From Octopus vulgaris (lineage: Eukaryota), in NCBI GenBank assembly GCA_951406725.2, contig OX597836.1, positions 496,001 to 560,000 of the forward strand: a stretch of DNA of 64,000 bases, written 5' to 3'. This document shows positions 7,483 through 55,526 of the stretch, in pieces (positions within the stretch are counted from its first letter, which is position 1; every line of letters begins with the position of its first letter). The position numbers and the translations under genes were made by a program. The notes beneath the pieces were generated by a model. That model did not search any database and was not told where the DNA came from. It was given only the letters and a program-made list of their open reading frames with translations.

Positions 7483-7545
<63 letters not shown>

Positions 7546-7549
<4 letters not shown>

Positions 7550-7829
7550 TGGAGTAAGCACATAAATGTGAAACAAGGTGTAAAAAAGAGTACTCAAATA
7601 CCAGAGCTAGAGAAATATGCTTATTTAAAAGCAGCAGAAATATAACAAAAGCTGTTACTCAGAGTTTCACATTCCCATTCGTCGGACAGTTTTGTTAACA
7701 ATATGTTAACTCTGAGTAACAGCTTTTGTTATATTTCTGCAGCTTTTAAATAAAGCATATTACTCTACCTCTGGTATTTGAGTACTATTTTTTCCACCTT
7801 GTTTCACATTTATATGCTTATTCCGGTAT
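7546..7829. mobile_element. Palindromic non-autonomous element in (TA)n with hammerhead-like motif
   Basis: Arms 7546-7666 and 7708-7829 are reverse complements and (TA)n lies on both sides. A hammerhead-like fold is present on the minus strand at 7652-7689. Confidence 0.8.
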
Positions 7830-7933
7830 ATATACATTTATATATATATATATACACACACAGATAATACATATAACACACACACATTAATATATGTGTA
7901 TGTATGTATATCTACATGTGTATGTAAATCTTG

Positions 7934-9443: not shown

Positions 9444-10280
9444 TCTGATCAATAAGTATCTGGACTGTTGTGATAGTAACGAAGCTAAAGCCTGCAGAGT
9501 GAAGCTGCTTGACACAGATTGATCTTGATCTCTGCTGGGCATGTGCACTAAGTTTTAACATTCTAGCTGTTTGTAGCAGTGCTTGGAAGGAAGGTGTGTT
9601 GCGTATGATCATTGCATTGACTATAACAGAGAAAGTTGAGCAGAGAATCTGCATCAAACTTTGCCAAAGCTTGGCAATACTTGCTCTGAGGCCTACACAA
9701 AGTTTTCAAAATGTTTCCATCATTCTCAACACTTCAAGGAGATCTTGTGTAATTGAAACCCGAATGTCGTTTTGGTCAGCTGAAAGCATTTTTGGCACAA
9801 GCTTAGCAGACACTCAAATCTTCAGTGATAATGGACTGAACTGAACCGTAACTAATCTGCACATCCTCTGATAACTCACGGATGGTGATTCGATGATGTC
9901 CCCTCACAGCTGCTTTCCCATCTGCGATGTTTTTCTCAGTTCTGCTGGTTGTGGGTCTCCCAGAACATTCGTAAATATCAACATTTTTTGGCCATCTTGA
10001 AAACGTCTGAAACACTCAAAAACTTGTGTGTGGCTCTTACACCTCTCTCCATACACTTTCTGCCACTTTCCATAGGCCTCTGAGCAGGTATTGCCATGAC
10101 GACTTTCTCAGTTATGGCCAATGCGATGATCACACACTGCCCACCTTCCTTCCAATCTAGAACATTAAAACTTAGTGCACATGCACTGCAGGGCTGAAGG
10201 TCAATCTGTGCCTGACAGCTTTTCTCTGATGCTTTGGCTTTGTTATTATGGTAACACTCCGGATACTTATTGATCAGACC
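9444..10280. mobile_element. Mariner-derived composite made of two inward-facing 5' ends
   Basis: TIR ctgatcaataagtatc(t/c)gga at both ends. The plus strand gives TEKVEQRICIK; the minus strand gives SGRPTTSRTEKNI...HRITIRELSEDVQISYGSVQSIITEDL, the mariner transposase HTH region. Confidence 0.8.
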
Positions 10281-13668: not shown

Positions 13669-14416
13669 CGAAATCGAAGTCAAAATCGAATTGAACCAGC
13701 CAGGATCCCTGGTCTGGTGGTACGTAAAAAGCACTATCCGACTTGTGGCCGATGCCAGCGCTGCCTCCACTGGCTTCCGTGCCGGTGGCACATAAAATAC
13801 GCCAATCTGACCGTACACCAGGCACACATGCCAACCCACTTGCTTGAGAAGACAGGTTGGGGCAAGCGAAATCGAATTGAACCAGCCAGGTTCCCTGGTC
13901 TGGTGGTACGTAAAAAGCACTATCCGACTCGTGGCCGATGCCAGCGCCGCCTCCACTGGCTTCCGTGCCAGTGGCACGTAAAATACACCAATCTGACCGT
14001 ACGACAGGCACCCATGCCAACCCCCTTGCTTGCGAAGACATGTTGGGGCAAGCGAAATTGAAATCGAATTGAACCAGCCAGGATCCCTGGTCTGGTGGTA
14101 CGTAAAAAGCACCATCCGACTCGTGGCCGATGCCAGCACCGCCTCGTCTGGCTTCCGTGCCGGTGGCACATAAAATACACCAATCCGACCGTGGCCGTTG
14201 CCAGCCTCGCCTGGCACCTGTGCAGGTGGCACGTAAAAAGCACCCACTACACTCACGGAGTGGTTGGCGTTAGGAAGGGCATCCAGCTGTAGAAACACTG
14301 CCAGATAAGACTGGAGCCTGGTGCAGCCTTCTGGCTTCCCAGATCCCCGGTCGAACCGTCCAACCCATGCTAGCATGGAGAACGGACGTTAAACGATGAT
14401 GATGATGATGATGATG
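13667..14416 (+). repeat. RTE-associated 3' tail element with about three tandem 185-192 bp units, ending in (GAT)n
   Basis: Unit starts (aaatcgaattgaaccagccagg) recur at about 13683, 13869 and 14061. It ends ...aacccatgctagcatggagaacggacgttaaacgatgatgat like the other copies. Confidence 0.85.
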
Positions 14417-14622
14417 TATATACACACATATACATACAAATATGTGTATATATATACTTATATTTACATATGTATATATATACTTATATTTACATATGTA
14501 TATATATATATATGTATATACACACATATACATACAAATATGTGTATATATATACATATGTATATATATATATATATGTATATACACACATATACATACA
14601 AATATGTGTATATATATACTTA

Positions 14623-14715
<93 letters not shown>

Positions 14716-14867
14716 ACATATATATATTTACATACACGAATGCATTTCTACGCACACATACACAAATATATATAACTGTTTATAACACACATGTATATGT
14801 ACATATATATAATTTATTGATATGTAGCAGAAGCATCAGAATGACTCAAGGACTAAGAGTTTCATGA

Positions 14868-15171
14868 TATAATTTTAACCTTTAAAGGTATTTTTTTCCC
14901 AAAAAGTTTCATCGAAAGTGGCAGCCTATTAAAATACCTTTAAAGGTTAAAATTATAAACAACTTATAAATAAGGGCAAAAGAAAAATTATTTCTATGCT
15001 GATAACAGACTTTAAATCGTCAATTTCCACATTTCATTTTACAATCACTATAAATACAGCACAACAAGTATTTATAGTGAATGTCTAATGAAATGTGGAA
15101 ATTGACGATTTAAAGTCTGTTACCAGCATATTGGCATGGAAATTACTTTTCTTTTGCCCCTATTTATAAGT

Positions 15172-15172
<1 letters not shown>
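14868..15172. repeat. Two adjacent AT-rich palindromes (14868-14957 and 14961-15172)
   Basis: First: tataattttaacctttaaaggtatttt...aaaatacctttaaaggttaaaattata. Second: aacttataaata.gggcaaaagaaaa...ttttcttttgcccctatttataagtt, with internal pairing cagactttaaatcgtcaatttccacatttcatt / aatgaaatgtggaaattgacgatttaaagtctg. Confidence 0.85.
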
Positions 15173-15250
<78 letters not shown>

Positions 15251-15335
15251 ATATATATGTTTGTGTATATATATATATATATGTTTGTGTGTATATATAT
15301 ATATGTTTGTATATATATATATCTATATATATGTT

Positions 15336-15464
<129 letters not shown>

Positions 15465-15557
15465 CATACGATATATATATATATGTTTGTATATATATAC
15501 ATACATATATATAAATATATACATAAGATATATGTATATTAATATATATATATTTTT

Positions 15558-17350
15558 TTCGTTTAACGTCCGCTTTCCATGCTAACATGGGTTGGACGAT
15601 TTTGACTGAGGGCTGGCGAACCAGATGGCTGCACCAGGCTCCAATCTTGATCTGGCAGAGTTTCCACAGCTTGATGCCCTTCCTAACGCCAACCACTCCG
15701 CGAGTGTAGTGGATGCTGGCAATGACCTAGCTCAAATCTTTTTACACATGCCACCGGCACAGGTGCCAGTGAAGCGACGTTGGTAACGAGCATACTTGGA
15801 TGGTACTCTTGGCACCCTACTAGCACAGGCATAAGTACCAGTAATGCGACACTGGTAACGATCATACTCGAGTAGCTGCTCTGTTAACAATCACACTTGT
15901 ATGGTGCTCTTTGCACCCCACTGGCACGGATGCCAGTCATCGAATTGATTTTGATTTCCCTTGCCTCAACTGGTCTTTGAAAGCAGAGTTTAGTGATCAA
16001 AGAAGGGAAAGGTATGCATAAGCAGGCTCGTTATGCTCCTAGCATAGGCCACAAGCTATGGTCAAATTTGGCTTGCCGGGTCTTCTCAAGCACAGCATAC
16101 TTCCAAAAGTCTCGGTCGCTAGTCATTTCGTTGGTAAGGTCTAATGTTCGAAGGTCGTGCTTCACCACTTCATCCCAGGTTTTCCTGGGTCTACTTCTTC
16201 CTCAGGTTCCCTCAACCACTAGGGTGTGGCACTTTTTCATGCAGCTATCCTCATCCATTCTTGCCACATGACCATACCAGTGCAGTCGTCTCTCTTGCTC
16301 ACCACATCTGATGCTTCTTCGGTCCAACATTTCTTTCAAGGTACCTACACTCTGTCGAGTATGAACACTGACATTACACTTCCATTGGATCATACTGGCT
16401 TCATTCCTTGTGAGCTTATGCATGTCCTCAGCAGTCACAGCCCATGTTTCACTGCCGTGTAGCATGGCTGTTCATACACATGCATCATACAGTGTACCTT
16501 TTACTCTGAGTGAGAGGCCCTTTGTCACCAGCAGTGGTAATAGCTCTCTGAACTTTGCCCAAGCTATTCTTATTCTAGCAGCTACACTTTCAGTGCACCC
16601 TCCTCAGCTACTGACTTGCTCACCTAGATAACAGAAGCTATCAACAACTTCTAGTTTTTCTCCCTGGAATGTGGCAGAAGTTGGTCTCTGCGCATTTTCA
16701 GTGTTTATCACCCCTGAGCATCTGCCACATACAAAAACTATCTTCCCAGTTAGCCTTCCTTTGATATTACTGCACCTCTTATGTGTCCATAGCTTACAGT
16801 GGGTACATCTTATAGAGTTTCTACCTACGCCTCTACTACAGATCGAGTAGGGCTATCTACCTGAAGGGATTTGAGATTTGTCTACCTTCCTACTTATTAG
16901 AACTTTGGTTTTAGCTAGGTTGACTATAAGGCCCTTCGATTCTAATCCTTGTTTCCACACTCGAAACTTCTCCTCTGGTTCTGATAGTGACTCAGTAATT
17001 AGAGCAAAGTCGTTAGCATAGAGGAGCTCCCAGGGGCATCCTGTCTTGAATTCCTCCGTTATTTTCAGGAGGACTATGATAAATAGGAGGGGGCTGAGTA
17101 CTGAACCCTGGTGGACCCCAACCTCTACCTTGAATCCTTCAGTGTACTTGTTGCCAACCCTTACCTTACTTACACTGCCCCTGTACATGGCTTGCACAGC
17201 TCTCACTAACCATTCATCTATCCCTAGTTTCCTCATTGACCACCAGATAAGGGATTGGGGCACCCTGTCAAAGGCTTTCTCCATGTCAACGAAAGCCAGG
17301 TACAGGGGCTTATCTTTGGCTAGGTATTTCTCCTGCAGCTGTCTTACCAG
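15558..17350 (-). mobile_element. 5'-truncated RTE-clade LINE (pseudogenised RT plus 3' tail)
   Basis: Translates FVDMEKAFDRVP...GVHQGSVLSPLLFIIV...LLYAND...; MLHGSETW...[11 protein letters not shown] with internal stops, followed by the shared 3' tail. Confidence 0.92.
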
Positions 17351-17356
17351 AAATAG

Positions 17357-18998
17357 TAGGGATAGATGAATGGTTAGTGAGAGCTGTACGAGTCATGTAC
17401 AGGGACGCTGTTAGTAAGGTGAGGGTAGGCAACGAGTACAGTGAAGTATTCCGGGTAGAGGTTGGGGTCCACCAAGGTTCAGTCCTCAGCCCCCTCCTAT
17501 TTATCATAGACCTCCAAGCAATAACGGAGGAATTCAAGACAGGATGCCCCTGGGAGCTCCTCTATGCTGATGACCTTGCCCTAATTGCTGAGTCACTATC
17601 AGAACTGGAGGAGAGGTTTCAGGTGTGGAAGCAAGGATTAGAATCAAAGGGCCTTAGAGTCAACCTAGCTAAAACCGAAGTTCTAATAAGTAGGAAGGTA
17701 GACAAATCACAAACACCTTCAGGTAGATGGCCCTGCTCGATCTGTAGAAAAGGCGTAGGTAGAAACTCTATAAGATGCACCCAGTGTAAGCTATGGACAC
17801 ATAAGAGGTACAGCAATGTCAAAGGAAGGCTAACTAGGAAGATAGTTTTTGTATGTGGCAGATGCTCAGGAGCAATAAACACTGAAAATATGCAGAGACC
17901 ATCTTCCGCCACATTCCAGGGAGAAAAACTAGAAATAGTTGATAGCTTCCGTTACCTAGGTGACCAAGTCAGTAGTGGGGGTGGGTGTGCTGAAAGTGTA
18001 ACTGCTAGAGTAAGAATAGGCCGGGCAAAGTTCAGAAAGCTCTTACGTCTGCTGGTGACAAAGGGCCTCTTGCTCAGAGTAAAAGGCAGATTGTATGATG
18101 CATGTGTACGAACAGCTATGCTACATGGCAGTGAAACATGGGCCGTGACTGCTGAGGATATGCGAAAGCTCGCAAGAAATGAAGCCAGTATGCTCTGATG
18201 AATGTGTAATGTCAGTGTTCATACTCGACAGAGTGTAAGTACTTTGACAGAAAAGTTGGACCTAAGAAGCATCAGTTGTGGTGTGCAAGAGAGACGTTTG
18301 CGCTGGTATGGTCATGTGGCGAGAATGGATGAAGATAGTTGTGTGCAAAAGTGGCACACCCTAGCGGTTGAGGGAACCTGAGAAAGAGGTAGACCCAGGA
18401 AAACCTGGGACAAGGTGGTGAAGCACGACCTTCGAACTTTAGGTCTCACCGAGGAAATGACTAGAGACCGAGACCTTTGGAAGTATGCTGTGCATGAAAA
18501 GACCTGGCAGGACAAGTGAGGCCATAATCCCGTGGCCTCTACCTGGGATGTAGCCAGGCCACTTATGCATTCCTTTCCTTCTTGGGACACAAAGCTCCAC
18601 TTGTGAAGACCTGTTGAGGCAAGTGAAAATCAAAATCAAAATCAAAATCGTATTCGATCAACATCAATGGAATTTGTAGCTGTGATACCAGTGCCGGTGG
18701 CACGTAAGAAGCACCATCCGAACGTGGCTGTAGCCAGCGCCACCCTGACTGGCCTCCGTGCCGGTGGTACATAAAATGCACCATCCGATCGTGGCCGTTT
18801 GCCAGCCTCGTCTGGCACGTAAAAAGCACCCACTACACTCACGGAGTGGTTGGCATTACGAAGGGCATCCAGCTGTAAAAACACTGCCAGATCAGACTGG
18901 GCCTGGTGCAGCCTTCTGGCTTCCCAGACCCCAGTTGAACCGTCCAACCCATGCTAGCATGGAAAGCGGACGTTAAACGATGATGATGATGATGATGA
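17357..18998 (+). mobile_element. 5'-truncated RTE-clade LINE (RT, PHD-like Cys cluster, 3' tail to (GAT)n)
   Basis: ORF 17377-18198 contains GVHQGSVLSPLLF, YADD, CSIC...CTQC..WTH..CGRC, FRYLG and HGSETW. The premature TGA at 18196 is CGA in the 31.3 kb copy, consistent with CpG decay. Confidence 0.95.
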
Positions 18999-21417: not shown

Positions 21418-21810
21418 GTAAGTACATACATGTATGTACATACACACACACGCACACAACCGTCACTAGATTTGTATTTCTTGAGATAACATATGGGACA
21501 ACCAATCAATCTAAGTACTTGAATAGACTAAAAAAGAAAGTGATTTAATATCTACCTGTTTACTTGTTTAATCAATAAATGGTCTTGCACAAATATTGAC
21601 AAAAATACATTCGCAAATATTAATCTATGGCTTAGGAAAACTGGGAAAGTTAAACAGAATTGTATGTCTACTACGACTTGCCTAGTGTTTATTTTTCGAA
21701 AGATTGAACTCTACCTGGCGGTATTTGAAAGGAAGACACAAAGAAAGGTATAGAAATCCAAAATGCAAATCTTAATCGTTAGCTAATTAAAGGGAAATAA
21801 CTCTAAAATC

Positions 21811-22133
21811 AATTGCAGCGTGGAAGGTGTTTATAATCCATTTAAAAATACAAAAACCGTTAGATTCATTTCAATATTTAAATTCAATTTGCCAAAATAT
21901 TTTCGTCGCTTTGAAACTGCGACCAGTTCACTGACAAAATTCTGCGCGGCATCACCGAATTTTGTTAGTGAAGAGGTCGCGGTCTCAAAGCGACGAAAAT
22001 ATTTAAATGTTGAAATTAATTTAACGGTTTTTGTGTGTTTTTAAATCGCTTATTAACACCTTCCACGCTGCAATTGTTTTTGTTTTAGCACACAATCTCA
22101 GATCAGGTTACTTGCTATGCAAGTACAACTCCG
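21811..22133. mobile_element. Palindromic element plus tail, flanked by a 13-bp direct repeat; hammerhead-like motif
   Basis: Inverted arms span 21810-22076. taactctaaaatc occurs at 21798-21810 and 22134-22146 (TSD-like). Hammerhead-like fold on the minus strand at 21888-21938. Confidence 0.8.
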
Positions 22134-25719: not shown

Positions 25720-26562
25720 ATATGACAAAACGCACGCATCCCTTTTAAGTAAGATTGTTCTTTATATCAAGTTTTGTTCTTGATATTAACTTTGATGCGC
25801 ACTCTTAACCTTTCTGTCCCACCCCTTTCTCAGCCTTCATTCCTTGATTTCCTTTTCCTCTACTTAACTTGTCTCTTCCTCTCTCTCATTCTTCACTCTC
25901 TCTCTCCCCCTCTCCATTCTTCATGGTTTCCTCGCAGCCATTCCCCTTCTTCTCTCCCTTTCTCTTGCTCCTCCTCCCCCCTCCCGTCGTTGACCCGCGA
26001 TGAGACTTCCGCTGCTGTCTTTCTGGCCTGGCCCTCTCAAGGTAATGGACGACAATTCTTTTTGCTCCACTCGTCGTTCATATAAAAAAATTCGCGTTCG
26101 CTATACTTTTTTTCGTTCGGCGTTAACAGCCCATCTTATCTTCTTTTTCCTTGTCCTGTCTTTTACTGTTTATAATTTGTACTGTCGTTACTGTCCTGTT
26201 TTTATTACCATTTTTTACCCCTCTGCGAAAAGATCTCAGAATTTTAATTGATTTGCTTTTCGCAGGAAGGAAAGTTTCTTGTTGAAGATACGTCTCGCTT
26301 TTATCCTTCGAAACGTAGAGTAGATGAAACCATAGCGACTGAAGAAGGGGTTTTTTCTTTGTGTTAATTGTCCTGTACTCTTTTTTTTTTTTTTTGTTTA
26401 AAAAATGTCCAGTTCTTTTGGTTTGTGTCTATGTTTTCGTTTCTCATTGTGTTCGACGTCCTTTTGGTGTCCTGTACTCATAGATGCGTGTATATGTACA
26501 TGTAGAGGTAGGTACGTACATATATGTTTATATATATGCATATGTTTTATTTTATTATTAAT
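25720..26562 (+). mobile_element. Penelope-like element 3' end / pseudo-LTR (left arm of a long inverted repeat)
   Basis: Starts with a GIY-YIG C-terminus-like remnant ([11 protein letters not shown]), then a pyrimidine-rich UTR and a ttcgaaacgt motif, ending in (TA)n. 26028-26562 is the reverse complement of 26918-27452. Confidence 0.6.
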
Positions 26563-26917: not shown

Positions 26918-26922
<5 letters not shown>

Positions 26923-27452
26923 TAAATAAAATAAAACATATGCATATATATAAACATATATGTACGTACCTACCTCTACATGTACATATACACGCATCTA
27001 TGAGTACAGGACACCAAAAGGACGTCGAACACAATGAGAAACGAAAACATAGACATAAACCAAAGGAACTGGACATATATTTAAAAACAACAAAAAAATA
27101 GAATACAGGACAATTAACACAAAGAAAAAACCCCTTCTTCAGTCGCTAAAGCTTTCATCTACTCTACGTTTCGAAGGATAAAAGCGAGACGTATCTTTGA
27201 CAAGAAAACTTTCCTTCCTGCGAAAAGCAAATCAATTAAAATTCTGAGATCTTTTCGCAGAGGGGTAAAAAATGGTAATAAAAACAGGACAGTAACGACA
27301 GTACAAATTGTAAACAGTAGAAGACAGGACAAGGAAAAAGAAGATAAGAAGGGCTGTTGACGCTGAACGAAAAAAAGTATTACAAACGCAGAATTTTTTA
27401 TGGACGACGAGTGGAGGAAAAAGAGTGACGTCCATTACTTTGAAAGAGCCAG
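26918..27452 (-). mobile_element. Second copy of the same element, tail-to-tail with the first across a (TA)n/(TACA)n tract
   Basis: Near-identical peptides appear on opposite strands in the ORF track ([27 protein letters not shown]...; ...PVFITIFYPSAKRSQNFN). Confidence 0.85.
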
Positions 27453-49127: not shown

Positions 49128-49199
<72 letters not shown>

Positions 49200-49318
49200 G
49201 TATGTGTTTGTGTGTGTGTGGTGTTTATGCAGAAATATTCACATATATATGTAGGTGCATATATATGGATATTTATATGTGTATATATATATATATATAT
49301 GCATATATCTGTAAATGT

Positions 49319-49772
49319 AATTTATGACAATTATTCAGTAGCCAAGATAAAACTCTGAGTTTCAGATGCTGAGGTGGAAATCCATGCCACCGTCTCTTCA
49401 GTTATCCGGCCATCAGAAAAACACTATGAAAAATTTTTCATAGCGTTTTTCCAATGGCTGGATAACTGAAGAGATGGTGGCATGGATTTCCACCTCAGCA
49501 TCTGAAACTCAGAGACCTCAATATTATGTAAATAGAGGAATTTATCGGTAAATTTGTGACAATTATTCGGTAGCCAAGATAAAAATCTGAGTTTCAGATG
49601 CCGAGGTGGAAATCCATGCCACCATCTCTTCAGTTATCCGGCCATCGGAAAAACACTATGAAAAATTTGTATTTCCATCTCGGCATTTGAAACTCAGAGT
49701 TTTATCTTGGCTACCGAATAATTGTCACAAATTTATCGATAAATTCCTCTATTTACATAATATTGAGGTCTC
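49319..49772. mobile_element. Four-arm tandem/inverted repeat with type I hammerhead-like motifs
   Basis: Arms alternate in orientation (about 49319-49436, 49436-49514, 49512-49668, 49671-49772). Full motifs lie on the minus strand at 49341-49410 and 49573-49642. Confidence 0.85.
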
Positions 49773-49828
49773 TTTCTTCTTTTATTATCTTACCATTTTT
49801 ATCAATATATATACATATATATATATCA

Positions 49829-49877
<49 letters not shown>

Positions 49878-50089
49878 ACCTACACATGTCAGTAAGGAAT
49901 ATGGATTTAAATGGTGTTGGTCAGGAAGCCTGAACAGCCCTTCAGCCAATCAGCTCCTGTAAAACTGTCCAACCCATGCCTGCATAGAAAGCGGACATTA
50001 AATGATGATGATTCTTGTTTCATTAAAATATTTTGTTTTTTGTATGATTTTATTTTTTGAAACTTTTATAAGTATTTAGAGTAACATCA

Positions 50090-50451
50090 ACATCAAAATT
50101 CAATGGAAATTGTAGTTGTGATCCCTCTACCGGTGACACATAAAAAGCACCATCCAAACGTGGCCAATGCCAGCGCCGCCTTGACTGGCTTCCATGCTGG
50201 TAGCATGTAAAAAGCACCAACTGATTGTGGCCATTGCCAGCCTCACCTGGCACCTGTGCCGGTGGCATGTAAAAAGCACCCACTACACTCATGGAGTGGT
50301 TGGTGTTAGGAAGGGCATCCAGCTGTAGAAACATTGCCAGATAAGACTGGAGCCTGGTGCAGCCTTCTGGCTTCCCAGATCCCCGGTCGAATCGTCCAAC
50401 CCATGCTAGCATGGAGAACGGACGTTAAACGATGATGATGATGATGATGAT
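50090..50451 (+). mobile_element. RTE-associated 3' tail element ending (GAT)n
   Basis: Same sequence as 18660-18998 and 31960-32455. Confidence 0.88.
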
Positions 50452-55100: not shown

Positions 55101-55210
55101 TGACAGACACCTTCTCTAGTAACTTTGTGGCAGCAAAACAAACTTATCCTTTCAACCAAACTGCACCTAACTGTGTGTATGTATATGTGTATATATATAA
55201 ATAGCTGAGA

Positions 55211-55361
55211 GATTAGAATTAGTCAAAGAACATACCATGTATGTCTACCTGCTGGAAATAACAGTCAAAACTCATATTTAAATCACTGATTCAAATAAGA
55301 GTTTTGACTGTTATTTCCAGCAGGTAGACATACATGGTATGTTCTTTGACTAATTCTAATC
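55211..55361. repeat. Near-perfect 151-nt palindrome
   Basis: gattagaattagtcaaagaacatacc...cagtcaaaactc a tattt a aatca c tgatt c aaata a gagttttgactg...ctaattctaatc; only two mismatched pairs, both near the centre. Confidence 0.95.
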
Positions 55362-55526
55362 CTTCACTATCTAATGCTTTTGGGGCCTGCAATCGCCTAT
55401 ATTATTGATTCTGTTATTACTATTTTTAATTGTTACACTCGATAATAACAAAGTCAATAATATCTACGCAAATATTTTCTCCCTGAATTATTTGTTCCGT
55501 ATGTGTGTGTGTATACATACATACAT

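Follow-up and report, generated by a model that had tools for sequence, protein, structure and literature searches.

Penelope-like elements (PLEs) are described as leaving copies that are inverted and 5'-truncated, meet at palindromes, carry a 3' tail on one side only and sit at TA targets (PMC8557442, PMC3846280, PMC8969392). Their hammerhead motifs are reported to occur as opposite-strand pairs 100-700 bp apart, with a long helix II, a conserved G10.1-C11.1 pair, a palindromic helix III and low activity; the D. virilis motif has a helix II bulge (PMC4209133). Such motifs may require protein (PMC11167929), and hammerhead cleavage as a dimer has been reviewed (PMC6765202). In the accessible part of PMC3088659, no 11.1/12 insertion appears among the hammerheads described. 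Animal retrozymes are 150-450-bp repeats, for which descent from pseudo-LTRs (pLTRs) has been argued (PMC7229834; bioRxiv 10.64898/2026.07.22.740005). Hammerheads and PLEs are already known in cephalopods (PMC6962438, PMC13282606): 235 Rfam hammerhead matches are given for the giant squid (PMC6962438) and 31 recently active PLE families for Octopus vulgaris (PMC13282606).

We analysed a locus of four related arms within a 64-kb window, by which we mean the whole stretch of DNA under study. In our judgement the arms, all of them mutated, are probably copies of a single unit from a high-copy repeat. The unit bears a type I hammerhead-like motif and is likely the pseudo-LTR, or 3' end, of a PLE; both local motifs are predicted to be inactive. 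The locus shares with PLE pseudo-LTRs (Penelope/Poseidon, Neptune, Nematis, Hydra) the type I topology, the long helix II and the short palindromic helix III, the G10.1-C11.1 pair (here in roughly half of the family), and truncated, inverted copies that meet head-to-head at a palindrome and have 3' ends of unequal length. Both occur mostly as solo remnants, and the TA tracts around the locus may correspond to the AT-rich target of PLEs. It differs from them in that no ORF is linked to it and in that it has four arms where PLEs have an inverted pair. Moreover, PLE hammerheads usually have their extra nucleotide between A9 and G10.1, whereas here the 3' side of helix II carries it, and the PLE tail measures 30-40 nt at one end, whereas the one-sided 3' extension of the locus is ~65 nt or more. 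With the non-LTR retrozymes of animals (coral, mussel, axolotl) it shares the type I hammerhead, high copy number, low GC and a spacing of 232 nt that falls within the known size range; unlike them, it has no head-to-tail monomers, its spacer contains an antisense arm and neither of its motifs is complete.

Layout of the four-arm element

A first-pass annotation of this DNA had described two same-strand hammerhead-like motifs 232 nt apart, with partial inverted copies between and after them, at 49319..49772. The sequence that it quoted, the two motifs, their offset and the inverted copies were all found in the window. The motifs lie within four arms that are 92-96% identical to each other, the inverted copies being those that we call B and D, and the element exceeds the extent first given, running from 49306 to at least 49807. 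Its internal repeats are a direct pair (49319-49436 / 49551-49668; 118 nt, 95%) and three inverted pairs (49511-49616 / 49668-49773, 95%; 49431-49513 / 49586-49668, 95%; 49353-49433 / 49434-49514, 94%, with a spacer of 0 nt). Counting unit positions from 49668 downward on the minus strand, the order of arms on that strand is D inverted (53 to at least 192), M direct (1-158), B inverted (84-1) and A direct (1-~131). No further copy of the unit occurs in the 64-kb window beyond these four arms.

Arm A (49306..49436, minus strand) has its outer 3' end within a TA tract, and a family contig aligns without gaps to 49303-49368 at this outer end. It meets arm B (49431..49514, plus strand) in a head-to-head palindrome at 49424..49443, centred on 49433/49434, with 0 nt between the arms. 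Arm B stops before U16.1 and thus has no cut site. It has 4 nt in common (49511-49514) with arm M (49511..49668, minus strand). Arm D (49668..49807, plus strand), an inverted 5'-truncated copy that starts at unit position 53, holds only the 3' half of the motif and extends ~65 nt further 3' than arm A; the hammerhead motif ends ~95 nt before the known end of this arm. The locus has two head-to-head junctions that join an inverted 5'-truncated copy.

On the left the element is flanked by a CT/TA/TG microsatellite tract (49130..49305) and on the right by a (TA)n tract (49808..49876), both of which are likely target sequence. When checked for a target-site duplication, 49296-49307 and 49808-49819 agreed at 11 of 12 positions, which is not significant in TA-tract DNA. 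The surrounding animal DNA is rich in AT and in microsatellites, contains repeat fragments and is depleted of CpG (window CpG o/e 0.38). To the right of the element, two related repeats that end in (GAT)n lie at 49950-50450; they are likely of SINE type.

Anatomy and predicted folding of the hammerhead-like motifs

Motif 1 (49339..49412, minus strand) has the canonical core, the quasi-palindromic stem III and the GUU triplet ascribed to it in the first-pass annotation, with a putative cut after 49351. Its stem III has 3 bp, and 8 of 9 nt are self-complementary. Stem II contains a C.A mismatch at 49392 that is private to the locus (U in 73-90% of the family). As had been noted, motif 2 (49571..49644, minus strand) has intact core letters and an intact stem II together with a mutated stem III; the break is a C.U at 15.2-16.2 that results from a private G16.2-to-U change at 49585 (G in 95-96% of the family). 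The core positions C3-A9, G12-A15.1, U16.1 and H17 are complete in both motifs, and stem I consists in both of 6 bp, a bulge and 5 bp, with predicted pair probabilities of 0.68-1.0 in the isolated motifs.

Next to the core, stem II shows a G.U at 10.1-11.1 followed by a bulged C. The letter earlier reported as an extra U before GAAA is indeed present, but it is better read as position 11.1 beside this bulged C. The same position is C in 40-60% of family depth (runs X3 and X5, see below), which restores G10.1-C11.1 beside the bulge in about half of the family; the local U is likely to be either a deaminated CpG or a subfamily letter. An AUG starts stem II in arms M and B (49625-49623 and 49474-49476), and the frame that it opens in arm M closes after 20 codons, as counted by eye. 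In an anole PLE, an AUG at the start of stem II is described as an ORF start (PMC11167929).

A pattern of core, stem III and stem I gave one match in the window versus 6 in 12.7 Mb of shuffled sequence (0.03 per 64 kb). A strict scan that also demanded a stem II of at least 3 bp gave no match in the window, neither motif passing it. Rfam hammerhead models gave no match at E up to 10, at the gathering score or on the isolated motif, and the only models matching below the gathering score were hairpin-type microRNA models. Hammerhead pattern scans found 0 loci in viral contigs and 0 in metagenomes. Fifteen loci obtained with a looser pattern were rejected as chance matches: all 15 were without stem I (0-2 bp) and without BLAST likeness.

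Both motifs are predicted not to self-cleave at this locus, according to folding models in which arm-arm pairing would abolish both hammerhead folds. In the full RNA, the predicted pairing probability of stem I is ~1e-48 for motif 1 and ~1e-23 for motif 2; for motif 2 it is ~0.006 even without arm D, and arm D is predicted to block this motif already during transcription. The predicted self-duplex of stem III amounts to -7.4 kcal/mol for motif 1 and -0.4 kcal/mol for motif 2, and the G16.2-to-U change of motif 2 would weaken the stem III duplex from -7.4 (A:A) to -3.9 kcal/mol (A:M). For an RNA starting at 49668, arms B and M are predicted to pair, leaving stem I free to form in motif 1 (0.67-0.98), so that the silence of motif 1 depends on the start of transcription; even then, the catalytic fold of this motif carries a predicted penalty of 13 kcal/mol, and there is no intact dimer partner in cis. 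Taken in isolation, each motif has a predicted minimum-energy fold in which core bases are buried; the penalty for imposing the hammerhead fold is 13 and 19 kcal/mol, as given by a model that omits tertiary terms and is uncalibrated on a known hammerhead.

The repeat family in public sequencing runs

Contigs of public runs were aligned to 49303-49803 at 80% likeness, using 4 of the 24 listed runs. Family contigs numbered 6,581 in DNA run X3 (organism A) and 5,698 in DNA run X5 (organism B); another 219 contigs matched in run X2, which we guess to be RNA, so they carry no weight as evidence. In raw-read run X23, 0 of 12.9 million reads aligned, which says nothing for or against the family or the local junctions. 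We claim a family copy number of thousands or more; summed depth over stem III, divided by the listed contig depths, reaches 40,000-190,000 in X3, a value that is not itself a copy number. Our search of the literature found no published description of the family, which may still be catalogued in a repeat library or a supplement. As a modest lead, it may represent a hammerhead variant missed by Rfam and present in at least two species.

Family contigs extend past the unit on its upstream side (at 49666; 37 contigs in X3) and on its downstream side (at 49776/49778; 125 contigs in X3, 137 in X5), and neither continuation is arm B. Compared by eye, the loose contig ends past 49776/49778 agree with window positions 49779-49807; these ends stop at 30 letters, and a longer monomer would not show either way. 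Between the putative cut sites of the two motifs, the 232 nt consist of the 3' part of M, antisense arm B (84 nt) and the 5' part of A. Because the family continues otherwise at both unit ends, these 232 nt are a local chimera and not a family monomer. The earlier proposal of a working retrozyme-like unit, in which the two motifs would dimerise and release a 232-nt RNA, is not supported in view of this result, and we give it almost no credence. Two same-strand cores, a spacing within the retrozyme range and a 232-nt RNA that is predicted to be highly self-paired (-146 kcal/mol) would suit it, but the unit is a local chimera, private changes break stem III of motif 2 and mismatch stem II of motif 1, and stem I has a vanishing predicted probability in the full RNA, remaining low in motif 2 even when arm D is removed.

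In other copies of the family, 14 of the 15 listed joints run antisense-to-sense, that is, head-to-head, at varied points, a pattern reported for PLEs; 7 of these 14 have at least 30 nt on the short side. Each listed joint is supported by 1-2 contigs at 80% likeness, and there are 42 further joints. None of the 15 listed is head-to-tail. Summed depth drops more than 10-fold at the 5' end of the unit, which fits 5' truncation and also alignment edge effects. These results bear on the possibility that PLE proteins mobilised a non-autonomous parent, a tandem retrozyme with a monomer of at least ~225 nt, of which the locus would be a truncated, inverted and dead derivative. Such a parent, which we regard as rather unlikely, would agree with the high copy number, with the missing link to an ORF, with a stem I of 11 bp and a stem III of 3 bp that are stronger than those of minimal PLE motifs, and with the 150-450-bp size and argued pLTR descent of animal retrozymes (PMC7229834; bioRxiv 10.64898/2026.07.22.740005); it sits poorly with the lack of a head-to-tail joint among the 15 listed and with the fall in depth, which is what 5' truncation gives, edge effects likewise.

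When motif 1 was mapped to the family, with the locus-private positions 49392 and 49585 set aside, 12 of 74 positions varied at 8% or more. None of the 12 falls on the 13 core positions (P 0.08; among 40 rows listed). Nine lie at CpG, where selection need not be invoked; the remaining three fall on the bulge of stem I and on a mismatch and a wobble of stem II (post hoc P 0.015). The type I anatomy of the motif, including a palindromic stem III of the dimer type, is supported, and family variation respects it. We had also considered reading most family variants as structural tolerance, which was dropped in favour of CpG decay. A compensatory U-A/C-G exchange in a rival hairpin over G12-A13 (49364 with 49356) was dropped as well, the frequencies of the two changes being mismatched; G at 49356 is listed on arm M only.

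The family data also bear on the assembly. Arms A, M and D have in common a letter missing from 97-98% of family depth, and arms A, B and M one missing from 74-92%, which suggests a single template for all arms. Each pair of arms differs by 4-6 substitutions without homopolymer indels, and of the 12 sites at which arms differ, 11 are transitions and 6 lie at CpG. If the four-arm layout were an assembly artefact, made from fold-back reads or collapsed family copies, its arms would hardly show this pattern of substitutions, nor the shared family-rare letters, which fit one aged locus and not a mosaic. In favour of an artefact, no near-identical contig spans the three local junctions among the 24 pieces listed (12,678 further); two contigs cross the B/A palindrome, but at ~87% identity, and so represent other family copies. 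We consider an artefact very improbable.

Origin of the locus and other foldbacks of the window

We suggest that the locus works like a PLE pseudo-LTR remnant, PLE membership being a candidate assignment. As a decayed PLE 3' end, it would have arisen in two steps. The reverse transcriptase (RT) of the element would have inserted a 5'-truncated copy together with a head-to-head inverted partner into the TA tract, likely by self-priming, to give an inverted pair, made of a long inverted arm and arm A, whose arms met in a palindrome and differed in the length of their 3' ends. Two template switches within the long arm would then have generated D-M-B with the middle arm flipped, leaving unit blocks 1-52, 53-84 and 85-158 in 2-3-2 copies, and neutral decay, mainly by transitions, would have followed. 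The hammerhead of an intact parent copy would cleave weakly, either dimerised or assisted by protein, which is what has been reported for other PLEs; at the locus, read-through RNA is predicted to form two long hairpins instead. The four-arm locus is, in these terms, probably ordinary.

The second step resembles the DUP-TRP/INV-DUP rearrangements described in PMC11293582: in haplotype structure 1, too, the copy profile is 2-3-2 and the added blocks are inverted, one of the two junctions has 4 shared nt, and the rearrangement arises in an inverted repeat. Those rearrangements span kb to Mb, whereas the locus spans ~0.2 kb; the product is alike and we infer the mechanism. A 5-nt deletion and one substitution are common to arms M and D, whereas arm A keeps the state of the family at both. 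Arms A and B share a CpG change absent from M and D; the two-step history would have to invoke recurrence or conversion for it, and the arms may instead stem from one messy insertion.

Several results count against a PLE origin. No RT or GIY-YIG frame lies next to the element in the 64-kb window: the 132 window frames of at least 65 aa gave 0 GIY-YIG matches, and the two RT matches of the window are 31 kb from the element and of RT-PHD type, the RT-PHD fragment being nearest to clusters from Mollusca and Cnidaria. There is no Rfam hammerhead match, the extra base is on the wrong side of helix II, the overhang of ~65 nt compares with 30-40 nt in PLEs, the 9 of 12 family variants at CpG require no selection, only 1-2 contigs at 80% likeness support any listed joint, beside 42 further joints, and an RNA that began at 49668 would allow motif 1 to form its stem I. 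We nevertheless prefer the decayed PLE 3' end.

A bolder and unlikely form of this origin would have as parent an undescribed, very abundant short mobile RNA, namely a retrozyme-like PLE derivative with a bulge on the 3' side of helix II after G10.1-C11.1, whose young copies would still cleave and circularise and leave head-to-head foldbacks. If this were true, the foldbacks would act as sources of long double-stranded RNA throughout the genome. The locus itself is likely one dead copy among thousands and matters little alone. It does illustrate cleanly, on a small scale, how ends of PLE type form inverted pairs, which rearrange into a seeming tandem ribozyme, and the young copies of the family are a modest lead for a cleavage assay.

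An unrelated head-to-head foldback between TA tracts, with a layout like that of the four-arm element, was observed at 7541-7834. It contains a type I hammerhead-like motif (7697-7643, minus strand) whose core has a U4-to-C change, with a stem I of 4 and 8 bp around one bulge, a palindromic stem III and a GUA triplet. It shares only the stem III motif with the four-arm element. A relaxed hammerhead scan gave 2 matches in the window versus 5 in 19.1 Mb of shuffled sequence. With this second hammerhead foldback, such insertions appear routine in the genome.

These observations also touch the reading in which the family is another kind of repeat (the 3' part of a SINE, a MITE or a foldback DNA element) and its hammerhead likeness is incidental. 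The chance expectation of core and two stems (only 0.03 per 64 kb), the variation of inversion points among copies, unlike fixed terminal repeats, and the recurrence of motif and layout in the unrelated element at 7541-7834 make this highly unlikely in our view, even though no Rfam hammerhead model matches, foldbacks are common in the window, and the best folds bury core bases, the hammerhead costing 13 and 19 kcal/mol in a model that omits tertiary terms.

Other inverted repeats of the window were also inspected. An inverted pair of ~530 nt (26028-26560 / 26920-27452) surrounds a (TA)n tract; in each of its arms the two half-cores of a hammerhead occur ~30 nt apart but in reversed order, and no stem I was seen. 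Additional fold-back or inverted repeats lie at 21805-22081, 55198-55373 and 14239-15717, where scans gave no hammerhead motif. The inverted pair 15945-17226 / 17357-18639 (87%, 1.3 kb) consists of retroelement fragments, with RVT_1 and PHD matches on opposite strands. Finally, a Mos1-type transposase HTH match (9907-10107, minus strand, E 1.4e-05) lies inside the inverted repeats 9444-9636 / 10102-10278 and is likely, judging by this match, a mariner remnant.
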